From the NCBI RefSeq assembly GCF_030028105.1, contig NC_092380.1, forward strand, positions 4,025,212 through 4,089,211: a DNA stretch of 64,000 bases. The letters run 5' to 3'. Of this stretch, positions 44,701 through 48,106 are shown one piece after another. Below the pieces are notes generated by a model that was given only the letters and a program-made list of their open reading frames with translations, was not told where the DNA came from and did no database searches. The number at the start of each line of letters is the position of its first letter. The stretch's first letter is position 1. Both the position numbers and the translations under genes were made by a program. Origin of the DNA: Mobula birostris. Taxonomy: Eukaryota.

Positions 44701-46809
44701 GGTCTAGGGAACCTTGATTTTCCAGAGATAGAGGGTTTAAAAAAAGGTTCACAGCAGGTATAGGCAGGCAGGAACAAATGAGGTACTTGGAGTACAAGAA
44801 ATGTATGTAAACACTTAAGGAAAAAAAAAAATCAAGAGGCCTAAAAGGGATGAGGTTGCTCTAGCAGACAAGGTGAAGGAGAACACGAGGAATTCTGCAG
44901 ATGCTGGAAATTCAAGCAACACACATTAAAGGTGCTGGTGAACGCAGCATCTCTAGCAAGGGGTACAGTCGACGTTTCAGGCCGAGACCCTTCGTCAGGA
45001 CTAACTGAAGGAAGAGCTGGTAAGAGATTTGAAAGGGGGAGGGGGAGATCCAAATTGATAGAAGACAGGAGGGGGAGGGATGGAGCCAAGAGCCGGACAG
45101 GTGATTGGCAAAAGGGATATGAGAGGATCACGGGACAGGAGGCCCAGGGAGAAGGAAAAGGGGGAGGGGGGAAAAAACCCATCATGGCTTGCAGCAGGAA
45201 AAATGGGCTGAAAAATGGCAGACGAAACTTAATGGACACAAAGTGAGATGTTGCACTTTGGGAGGGCAAACCAGGGTAGGATTTACACAGTGAACAGTTG
45301 GGCAATAAGGAGTTTGGCAGAACAATCTGGAAAAACAGATCCATAATTCCTTGGCCTGGAAGTAGGTCACAGGCAGATAGGGTGATAAAGAGAGCTTTTG
45401 GCAGATTAACCTTCACAGATCGAAGTACTGAATGCAGGAGTTGGGAGGTTATGTTGAAGTTGTACATGCTGGTGAGGCCAAATTTTGAAGTTCTGTGTGC
45501 AGTTCTGGTTACCTACCTACAGGAAAGATACAAACAAGATTGAAAGAGTACAGAGAAAGTTTACAAGGATGTTGCTGGGCCTGGAGGACCTGAGTTATAA
45601 GGCAAAATTGAATAGATTAGAACTTTATTCCCTAGAATGTAGAAGATAGAGGGGAGATTTGATAGAGGTATACAAAATTATGACAGATATAGATAGGGTA
45701 AATGCAAGCATGCTTTTTCCACTGAGGTTGTGAGAGACTACTAGATGTCAGGGGTTAAGGGCAAAAGGTGAAATGTTTAAGGGGAACATGAGGGGGAACA
45801 ACTTCACTCAGAGGGTGGTGAGTGTGGGGAATAAGCTGCCAGCACAAGTGATGGATGCAGTTTCAATGTTTACAAGAAGTTTGGATGGGTACATGGATGG
45901 CAGGAGTATAGAGGGCTGAAGTCTGGGTGCAGGTCAATGAGAGAAGGGAATTTAAATGGTTCAGCACAGACTAGGTGGGCTGAAGGGCCTGTTTCTGTAC
46001 TGTACTTTTCTATGATTATGCCAATGACAAGTCGGGTAGTGTAGCAGTTAGGGCGATCCTCTAACAGCTCAGGGCATTCTGCAGTTCAGAGTTCAATTCG
46101 AGCACCACGTGTAAGGAGTTTATATGTTATTCATGTGACCACGTGGATTTCCACTTAAATGGGGATATACGTAGCCAATACTCCCTCACAATCTATCTAC
46201 TTTTCAGATCACAATGATAGTAATCTAAAATTCATTCTTCCATATGTGGTACAAAGGTATCTCCACCTTCAAGATACTCAAAGACTCAATTATTGATTAA
46301 CAAAGTCTTATTTCCACCTTCAATGAAGCTGCCTGGGAGGAGGCAAAGGATCAAGTGACAGTGAAAGCGAGGGAGAAATTGGCAGCAAAGATGAAAACAT
46401 TTCGTCAACAACAGGCCGTGTCAGTAGTACTCAGTTAGTTAGACCAACTAGTTCCGTCCAGTTGCCCCTAGATTTATCAGCCTGATTTTAGTTTATGCAG
46501 TCGCGGCGAGAGCACATTATCACTATCTTTGGGTATAATAAGTGTCTCAGGGGTCTGCAGTCACGCTGGACCCCGGCAGCAGAAACATTCGATCTGTGCT
46601 CCTGTCTGCCCCGCACTCCACTGGGTGCTGGAGAATTACACACCGAGCCCGCGGCCGCAGCCCCACAGCAGGGAGTCGGCGCCTCGGGCCCGCACCCGCA
46701 CCTACGATACTCACCCCTCAGTATATTCAGCCTGTAATAGGCCCAGATAGGCCTCCCACTTGTTGCCGACAACTTTGCCGCAAGTGAAACACCGCACCGG
46801 AATGATCAT
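38690..46809 (-). CDS. POLR2L: DNA-directed RNA polymerases I, II and III subunit RPABC5/RPB10, 67 aa: complement(join(38690-38798,46715-46809))
   Basis: Spliced translation [67 protein letters not shown]. Has the CxxC...CC zinc ligands and a phase-2 GT-AG intron. Confidence 0.98.
39150..40780 (+). mobile_element. CR1 fragment with nested Rex1-type (about 39425-39778) and CR1 (about 39820-40245) inserts
   Basis: FADDTQIG..., [11 protein letters not shown]...; interrupted by other LINE 3' ends. Confidence 0.7.
42461..44040 (-). mobile_element. Young 5'-truncated CR1 LINE (RT domain nearly intact)
   Basis: ORFs 43701-44006 and 42551-43684 (377 aa: [30 protein letters not shown]) separated by one frameshift; (TTTCTATG)-type tail at 42461-42480. 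Confidence 0.93.
44882..45180 (-). mobile_element. Penelope-like terminal fragment inserted in the old CR1
   Basis: AACACGAGGAATTCTGCAGATGCTGG... terminus shared with 47962-48106 and 51241-51423. Confidence 0.75.
44967..45002 (-). ncRNA. Minimal type I hammerhead ribozyme motif (PLE-borne), intact core
   Basis: Minus strand reads AGUC-CUGACGA-AGG(GUCUCGG)CCU-GAA-ACGU-C/GACU: stem I AGUC/GACU, conserved core, palindromic ACGU stem III. Confidence 0.75.
46715..46809 (-). CDS. POLR2L: POLR2L exon 1 coding part
   Basis: ATG at 46809; [33 protein letters not shown] followed by donor gtgagt. Confidence 0.98.
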
Positions 46810-47200
46810 CGTGCGAATGTTTTAAACACACCACACCCGGCAGAGAACCTGCCCGACCGCCGCTCTTTGGGACTAGGCCGCCCTAGTCCGCATTAACCCT
46901 TGTATGCGCATGCGCCACATTTAGGCTCCCACGTGACCCTAATTGCGTCCCAGCCGTGTAGAAACCCCCGTGATTAACTCTGCGCATGCGCCACATTTGT
47001 GGAACCCATGTGACCCTAATTGCGTCCCCGGCCGCGTAGAAACCCCCGTGATTACACTGCTCATGCGCGATATTGAGGCCCCACGTGACCCAGAATGCGC
47101 CTCGGTAGGGGGGGCGGCAAAGCCCGCTGATTAACTGCGCGTGCGTCAGGATATAAATCAGGCTCTACAACAATCACGCATGCGTAGATGCCCTGTGTAG
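46810..47200 (-). promoter_or_regulatory. POLR2L promoter with tandem NRF1 + E-box modules
   Basis: TGCGCATGCGC at 46905 and 46981 with variants at 47058 and 47136; CACGTGAC/CATGTGAC in the first three units; CpG-rich. Confidence 0.75.
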
Positions 47201-47619
47201 TATTGCTTATGCGCCATTAGCTTTATCTCATTGAAAAGTACTTTGAACTACATTAATGAATAAAAAAGGTATTATTGGGAGATTATTCTGGCATTTTCCC
47301 CCCTTCCTTTCCTGAAGGGATTCCTAAACGTCGACTTTTTATTCATTTCTAGAGATACTGCCTGACAGCACTCCGTGTGCGTTGCTGTGGATTTGCAGCA
47401 CCTCCTGTGTCTATTAATCGGGAGATTGAGTGAGAGTGCGCATGTGCCAAGGAGAAGAAACTGCGTCTGCATCACTGCGCATGTGCGGCGGGAAGTCGCC
47501 GTTGAGTTGCACCGTGGAAGCAGCAGGTGGCGCCACGACTCAACGTGTCAGAGATAGAGCGCGGAGAGCCATCAGAGACGTGAGGGGACGAACGGTCACA
47601 GGCCATGACAAGGCAGCAA

Positions 47620-47885
47620 TTAGACAATAGGTGCAGCAGTAGGCCATTCGGCCCTTCGAGCCAGCACCACCATTCACTGTGATCATGGCTGATCATCCAT
47701 AATCAGTATCCAGTTCCTGCCTTCTCCCCATAACCTTTGATTCCGCTATCTTTAAGAGCTCTATCCATCTCTTTCTTGAAAGCATCCAGAGACTTGGCCT
47801 CCACAGCCTTCTGGGGCAGAGCATTCCATATATCCACCACTCTCTGGATGAAAAAGTTTTTCCTCAACTCCGTTCTAAATGGCCT
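47620..47885 (-). mobile_element. CR1 LINE 3' end
   Basis: PFRTELRKNFFIQRVVDIWNALP...GYGEKAGTGY; (CAATAGA)-type tail. Confidence 0.8.
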
Positions 47886-47961
47886 AAGAACGGAATAGAG
47901 AATGGGAGGAGAATGGTAATTAGGAAAGACATGCAATTAGAAGACACGAGATACTACAGGT

Positions 47962-48106
47962 AAACACGAGGAAATCTGCAGATGCTGGAATTTCACGCAA
48001 CACACATCAAAGTTGCCGGTGAACGTAGCAGGCCAGGCAGCATCTCCAGGAAGAGGTACAGTCGACGTTTCGGGCCGAGACCCTTCGTCAGGACTCTAGG
48101 TGCTAC
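47962..48106 (-). mobile_element. Short Penelope-like insertion with 13-bp target-site duplication
   Basis: AGATACTACAGGT at 47949-47961 and 48107-48119; lies inside an older PLE terminus. Confidence 0.8.
48060..48095 (-). ncRNA. Minimal type I hammerhead ribozyme motif, intact core
   Basis: Minus strand reads AGUC-CUGACGA-A-GGG(UCUCGG)CCC-GAA-ACGU-C/GACU. Confidence 0.75.

Follow-up and report, generated by a model that had tools for sequence, protein, structure and literature searches.

Within the 64,000-nucleotide stretch of Mobula birostris DNA analysed in this work (the window), the intron of POLR2L carries in the sense orientation a short motif resembling a hammerhead ribozyme, and it was asked what this motif is, how it came to lie there and whether it is likely to cut the pre-mRNA of an essential gene. 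An ungapped scan allowing up to 12 mismatches found ten copies of the motif in the window (Table 1), matching the number of about ten given in a first-pass annotation of this DNA. The two copies that it had called intact, at 44967-45002 and 48060-48095 on the minus strand, were both found there as full 36-mers and are the two of the ten that retain a complete minimal type I hammerhead; they differ by a single base, position 11.1 being U in the former and C in the latter. Each of the other eight has at least one core position altered, as had also been proposed. The end of a Penelope-like element (PLE) that contains the 44967 copy is 86 % identical to the natural copy in locus L059 and at most 89.5 % identical to other fetched copies, and the end that contains the 48060 copy reaches 95.5 % identity to other fetched copies. 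The remnant of the PLE ORF lies on the same strand as the 57737 copy, approximately 360 nt upstream of it. The segment 44283-44883 (67 % match) was rejected as a piece of this ORF, the match being to the other LINE of which L059 holds an antisense fragment.

Table 1. Motif copies, pieces of PLE and parts of POLR2L located in the window
Feature	Position	Strand	Remarks
Hammerhead, complete core, G10.1-U11.1 closing pair	44967..45002	-	POLR2L intron, sense
Hammerhead, complete core, G10.1-C11.1	48060..48095	-	upstream of POLR2L
5'-truncated PLE end, ~290 bp: 3' UTR piece, hammerhead and tail	44882..45171	-	
PLE end, 134 bp, truncation exactly at stem I start	47962..48095	-	
Decayed copy; A9, G12, A15.1 altered	1881..1916	-	
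Decayed copy; U4, G12 altered	3014..3049	-	
Decayed copy; G12, A15.1, U16.1 altered	3404..3439	+	
Decayed copy; A6 altered	51105..51140	+	
Young copy, G8 altered; direct arm of inverted/direct insertion at 51189-51424	51290..51325	+	
Decayed copy; G8, G12, 10.1 altered	52577..52612	+	
Decayed copy; U4 and palindrome altered	56835..56870	-	
Decayed copy; A6 and palindrome altered	57737..57772	+	
Remnant, C-terminal end of PLE ORF	57282..57374	+	tblastn 74 % over 31 aa, E 3e-10
POLR2L exon 1; 46873 is the furthest mRNA-contig base	46715..46873	-	transcript contigs
POLR2L intron, 7,916 nt, GT-AG	38799..46714	-	joint in 4/4 runs, depth 464-1529
POLR2L exon 2 with the CCRRM motif and stop; extent given by contig coverage	38511..38798	-	

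Written as RNA, the motif comprises stem I AGUC/GACU, the core CUGACGA, one extra A, stem II GGGU-CUCG-GCCY, GAAA, CG and UC. Both intact copies have the core CUGANGA ... GAAA ... UH together with stems I and II, with the extra A between positions 9 and 10.1, and both satisfy a sequence-independent descriptor of the minimal type I hammerhead, the class to which they had been assigned. Stem II, previously described as having three base pairs, is indeed present, but four pairs (GGGU/GCCY around a CUCG loop) are possible after the unpaired A. The U at 11.1 was considered as a defect and rejected as such, since the G10.1-U11.1 pair is common among published PLE motifs, several of which have U at this position, and is thus a known variant. 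The palindromic ACGU had been said to replace stem III and to need a dimer, and a double-hammerhead structure of this kind could be drawn and scored.

The motif is not detected by Rfam, with 0 matches at the gathering score and, for hammerheads, none within 44800-48300 with E up to 10. The descriptor search, which the first-pass annotation had recommended for the whole genome, was run on 1.46 Mb and gave 26 matches, every one from the same PLE hammerhead family, in comparison to 0 in the reversed sequence and 0, 0 and 1 in three Markov shuffles. In the 4.01-Gb genome a 34-mer motif pattern had 30,596 exact matches and its reverse had 0, so that, together with the descriptor controls, the motif is not a product of chance. 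A looser core pattern matched 78,899 times (control 10), in accordance with the very large genome-wide family that had been predicted. In 1.4 Mb, 242 copies were found by their tails, decayed ones included, which by extrapolation would correspond to several hundred thousand copies in the genome. When families differing in stem I were looked for, 582 matches were obtained, and nearly all of the 25 inspected were single changes within the same family.

The fetched loci identified the carrier of the motif. RT and GIY-YIG peptides lay upstream of it, and in all 15 loci picked among the 150 RT matches listed (chosen for long frames or paired matches) a same-strand motif followed the RT, approximately 550 nt beyond YIGET in the loci that retained this peptide. 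Seven loci bearing the 5' part of the ORF were obtained from ten fetched once the query locus had been excluded together with two nearly identical loci next to it. In four of the seven the motif and its tail ran straight into the beginning of the ORF; of the other three, one had an inverted arm and two were truncated. The motif is therefore present on both pLTR sides of the PLE, in 15/15 loci on the 3' side and in 4/7 on the 5' side, the two sides being seen in different loci, and the Penelope-like terminus suggested earlier is borne out by this arrangement.

A natural frame of 897 aa matched RVT_1 (E 1.6e-4) and GIY-YIG (E 0.008), both below the Pfam cut-offs; one ORF encodes RT followed by a GIY-YIG endonuclease, as in an EN+ Penelope-like element. 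The linker between the two domains contains Cx4CxxC (CKRNKCYTC), which fits the CX2-5CxxC linker described as a mark of Neptune and Nematis (bioRxiv 10.1101/2021.04.23.441226). The carrier is likely a PLE of Neptune type, the linker mark being shared with Nematis. The nearest named relatives of the 897-aa frame were bamboo shark proteins (69 and 66 %), followed by coral, echinoderm and mollusc proteins at near 46-52 %. The long frame has its first ATG 138 nt downstream of the cut site, and the full-element unit, estimated from two loci, would be approximately 3.5 kb long. A 3,027-bp perfect tandem in L059 was rejected as the element unit, as it is a duplicated piece made of a truncated PLE and an antisense fragment of another LINE.

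The insertions display the features of EN+ PLE, namely 5' truncation, an inverted 5' arm and a tail of 30-40 bp. The 3' ends of young copies fall into two groups, at columns 90-104 and 124-141 from the start of the motif, approximately 35 nt apart; since L059 served as the reference for this mapping, ends beyond approximately column 140 are invisible in it. Two 3'-end groups are described as the signature of a PLE tail (bioRxiv 10.1101/2021.04.23.441226; PMC11167929).

The motif class was described in 2014 by Cervera and De la Pena (PMC4209133), and the minimal PLE hammerheads presented there share with the ray motif CUGANGA with one extra base, G10.1, GAAA, the palindromic 15.2-16.2, UH, a short stem I, a U-rich upstream flank, the place in both pLTRs and the occurrence mostly as single truncated copies. 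The Neptune motif of Acropora digitifera in the same paper nearly equals that of the ray, with CUGACGAA in common, a stem II of 4 bp closed by a tetraloop, and CGUC. Cartilaginous fish are absent from the species of its Fig. S3 as far as available. The 30,596 exact and 78,899 core matches found here compare with approximately 4,000 in coelacanth and 9,000 in Xenopus given by PMC4209133, with different search rules, and, unlike in that set as far as it is described, one family of little sequence variety dominates in the ray.

The element also resembles the green anole PAc (Frangieh et al. 2024, PMC11167929) in having RT with a C-terminal GIY-YIG domain, a hammerhead in the pLTR and two 3'-end groups, which in PAc are the tail and correspond to its two RT start sites. 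According to that paper, however, PAc belongs to the Poseidon clade and its ORF starts inside stem II, with the cut 26 nt into the ORF, whereas the cut here precedes the ATG. Animal non-LTR retrozymes (PMC7229834; bioRxiv 10.64898/2026.07.22.740005) likewise have type I hammerheads and are PLE-related; those of vertebrates are reported to work as dimers and to be very numerous (126,247 motifs in axolotl). Retrozymes are described as short tandem units expressed as circles, whereas the copies in the window are dispersed single pLTR pieces without head-to-tail units. No paper was found on a shark or ray PLE hammerhead family as such; one preprint covers a chondrichthyan genome, and its supplements might list the family.

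Folding predictions were obtained for the motif alone, in context and as a dimer. As a monomer it cannot form the core, because it has no stem III, and G5-G8 were predicted to pair with C15.2-C17 (p 0.96-1.0). When the 44967 copy was folded in 60-200 nt of its context, the predicted probabilities of stems I and II were at most 0.04, and in the native 5' pLTR of locus L263 the core was predicted to be masked too (stem probabilities at most 0.06); upstream pyrimidines are predicted to hide the core in both. In the 48060 copy, which is without that upstream piece, stems I and II were predicted to be kept. In the predicted double hammerhead each core would cut the other strand, and any two copies are compatible since the cross-pairing needs only the 36-mer. 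The predicted energy of this structure was -9.5 to -14.7 kcal/mol, whereas two monomers scored -20.0 to -23.8 kcal/mol, so the cutting dimer would be at a disadvantage of 9-10 kcal/mol relative to a pair of closed monomers in a calculation that omits tertiary contacts, Mg2+ and proteins. The predicted masking and the unfavourable dimer agree with the published behaviour of a schistosome PLE minimal hammerhead, for which no cutting as a monomer and weak cutting as a dimer are reported, and of the anole hammerhead, which cut only with the protein of its element (PMC11167929).

Taken together, it is highly probable that the motif is a minimal type I hammerhead of a PLE pLTR, likely of Neptune type, and that both intact copies in the window are short 5'-truncated insertions, likely inert. 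The ribozyme would serve the element. A tandem transcript would carry two copies of the motif approximately 3.5 kb apart, a distance taken from two loci, and these could cross-pair via ACGU and both stem I halves, likely aided by the protein of the element, and cut out a unit-length RNA; tandem or read-through RNA would in this way be trimmed when two copies share one protein-bound transcript. We only infer such a processing role, because insertion of the anole element in vitro did without hammerhead cutting (PMC11167929). Reverse transcription likely begins 60-110 nt downstream of the motif, so that most truncated insertions would carry it, which would explain the copy number. The inserted copies would then decay as neutral DNA. 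In POLR2L the copy lacks a partner in its transcript, and its core would be hidden by the predicted hairpin.

If templates were cut by the ribozyme, insertions might begin at the cut site. Genome-wide, 214 5' ends were found there, versus 88, 60 and 72 at three nearby positions, the prefix used for the count of 60 being stricter than the others. Among the first 100 cut-site ends listed, however, 56 and 15 share two prefixes, and inspection of 30 loci showed these to be mostly inversion junctions with 3-4 nt of microhomology to the motif itself; at the upstream control 59 of the 88 ends share one such prefix. After removal of the shared-prefix classes approximately 60 cut-site ends remained versus approximately 30-60 at the controls, and the excess of 214 was rejected as evidence of cleavage. 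No clear footprint of cut templates was seen among the genome-wide insertion 5' ends, since most of the excess consists of inversion junctions with microhomology, and one of 61 unpicked local copies begins at the cut site.

The lack of a clear peak could also mean that the hammerhead of the youngest subfamily no longer cuts and is kept as a fold or a protein-binding site, or is merely carried along. We regard this as rather unlikely, even though the fold is predicted to be masked in the native 5' pLTR of L263, U replaces C11.1 in 25 of 40 young copies and the anole element could do without cutting in vitro (PMC11167929). The G10.1-U11.1 pair is common in published PLE motifs, and the core and stems are constant between subfamilies except for a free position and CpG sites. 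Loss of cutting would be a property of the element, and the POLR2L copy could be inert all the same.

The constancy of the motif was followed in the decay of the 242 copies. Four of its five CpGs decay evenly on both strands (TG:CA 58:70, 94:76, 60:62 and 61:48; p 0.19-0.93), as would be the case in neutral, unselected DNA. Decay of the fifth, N7-G8, is one-sided (112 TG, 15 CA; p 1.6e-19), from which it follows that U7 was passed on by transposing masters and A8 was not. Between subfamilies the core is altered only at the free position 7; the subfamily majorities differ at 4-6 of the 36 motif columns, all of them position 7, loop or CpG sites, and at 10 of the next 16 columns past the motif, in a comparison biased by choosing the copies by motif and clustering them by tail. 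On the basis of the symmetric CpGs, the one-sided N7-G8 and the subfamily majorities the motif seems to be under constraint in lineages that transpose and free of it once inserted. Of the two kinds of conservation that had been called for, core conservation was found, position 7 excepted, but no compensatory stem changes above noise were seen in the 242 copies of the M. birostris genome. Among published motifs of other species the stems differ and yet still pair (PMC4209133).

The position of the 44967 copy in the host gene was established from transcript contigs. POLR2L, read from the minus strand with its ATG at 46809, has a single intron, and in four of four runs 38798 was joined to 46715, so that the transcript is spliced across the hammerhead copy. 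This joint is also the reason to accept that the runs hold transcript, their RNA origin being otherwise only guessed. Because the joint spans the whole minus-strand intron, the copy is both intronic and sense, as had been claimed; donor and acceptor are 1,744 and 6,172 nt away from it, respectively, and its predicted cut falls between 44971 and 44970. The 48060 copy lies approximately 1.2 kb upstream of 46873, the 5'-most base of the POLR2L mRNA contigs, and as these end there, the available data place it upstream of the gene.

For the intronic copy the first-pass annotation had offered two possibilities, cleavage in trans with another copy or a silent half-ribozyme. The latter fits the results, whereas the former is unsupported in view of the lack of sense depletion in the introns sampled, the masked fold, the unfavourable dimer energy and the presence of spliced mRNA. 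Sense depletion was looked for in 1.4 Mb inside six CUB-domain genes, a sample that does not include housekeeping genes, with the strand taken from exon matches and with 87 of 329 tail matches excluded as having no motif within 14 mismatches. The copies numbered 120 sense and 122 antisense in total, 45 and 46 among solo insertions, 22 and 27 among those with an intact core (p 0.52), and 11 and 13 among those with intact core and stems (p 0.83; with n=24 only a strong effect is detectable). The depletion expected of harmful sense copies was thus not seen in these six genes, at low power. Two post hoc subsets lean antisense, with 2 sense and 8 antisense among G10.1-C11.1 copies (p 0.10) and 5 and 12 among solo copies with an intact core (p 0.105).

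These subsets would suit a low-rate, mildly harmful cutting of intact sense intronic copies, that of POLR2L included, in trans through a second copy or with the protein while the element is active. The 36-mer makes any two copies compatible, tens of thousands of intact copies are available, the anole hammerhead is activated by its protein (PMC11167929), and retrozymes are reported to be fewer in Xenopus introns than between genes, a comparison given irrespective of strand in the available text (bioRxiv 10.64898/2026.07.22.740005). Such cutting nevertheless appears quite improbable, as the main strand comparisons are flat, the dimer is predicted to be disfavoured by approximately 9-10 kcal/mol, the core is predicted to be masked in its context and POLR2L mRNA is well spliced. 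Less probable still is an extended version, in which thousands of intact sense intronic half-ribozymes would be latent cut sites, completed in trans on derepression of the element and cutting host pre-mRNAs including that of POLR2L, with selection favouring the masked G10.1-U11.1 form in introns.

The conserved intronic hammerheads of amniotes are few and conserved and have their own stem III. The 44967 copy is like them a type I hammerhead lying sense in an intron, but it stands among tens of thousands of mobile copies and has no stem III. That it is a domesticated intronic ribozyme affecting splicing or transcript level, as its intact core, sense strand and essential host gene could suggest, is scarcely credible for an unexceptional, truncated copy from a young family, one that lacks its own stem III and in which approximately one copy in ten (24/242) is intact anyway. 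With this proportion, and half of the copies sense, intact sense copies should not be rare in introns of 8 kb. Nothing singles out the POLR2L copy from the others, and it is most likely an inert leftover of insertion.

The family adds a member from cartilaginous fish, with a very high copy number, to the motif class described in 2014. The available text of PMC4209133 presents no in vivo evidence of cutting, and for the anole element no RNA-seq ends at the hammerhead site are reported (PMC11167929); the cutting of host transcripts in vivo by PLE hammerheads is left open by both papers, as far as their available text goes, and the tens of thousands of near-identical copies in the ray provide material for a well-powered strand test of it. 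The family was also found in four sequencing runs of other organisms, and among the differences listed those within the motif occurred only at its 3' end and at CpG sites.

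In the young subfamily of the Penelope-like element, 10–20 nt lying 5' of the hammerhead motif are predicted to pair with the core and so mask the ribozyme fold. On this modelled pairing, the upstream stretch could constitute a switch, or it could be a by-product of a pyrimidine-rich UTR. A minor subfamily, comprising 7 of the 242 copies in the introns sampled, carries UCCG instead of CUCG in loop II, with stem II unchanged.

The microhomology found at the inversion junctions of the element (loci L203-L232) often corresponds to complementary stretches of the ribozyme itself, namely GACT of stem I and CGTC, the pairing partner of the core. 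Among the young copies, 5' ends cluster on the two nucleotides that open stem I: 6 of the 61 unpicked copies and 3 of the 56 picked ones start there.

Features of the element in the window
Feature	Window position	Other loci	Remark
Core-pairing upstream stretch	45003-45022	L263 (native 5' pLTR)	predicted fold
5' end at stem I start	48095	sampled genomic loci	same pile-up position
Inverted arm	51189-51241		joined to direct arm
Direct arm	51247-51424		joined to inverted arm

A 12-nt tail deletion is common to the inverted arm and the intronic 44967 copy and is absent from the direct arm. The 48060 insertion, upstream of POLR2L, is bordered on both sides by a 13-bp direct repeat (47949-47961 and 48107-48119). 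Since its flanks resemble the tail of an older pLTR, this young copy may sit inside an old one.

The genomic locus L059 contains, at 2013-8067, two identical tandem units of 3,027 bp, each composed of a truncated Penelope-like element and an antisense fragment of another LINE, which we take to be CR1-like. An old repeat fragment at 44283-44883, matching this LINE piece at 67 % and occurring in many loci, directly adjoins the end of the intronic element.

On the 3' side of POLR2L, contigs of 1.1–1.4 kb (depth 8–34, four runs) end at 38000-38369, possibly representing a longer POLR2L 3' UTR or a neighbouring transcript.
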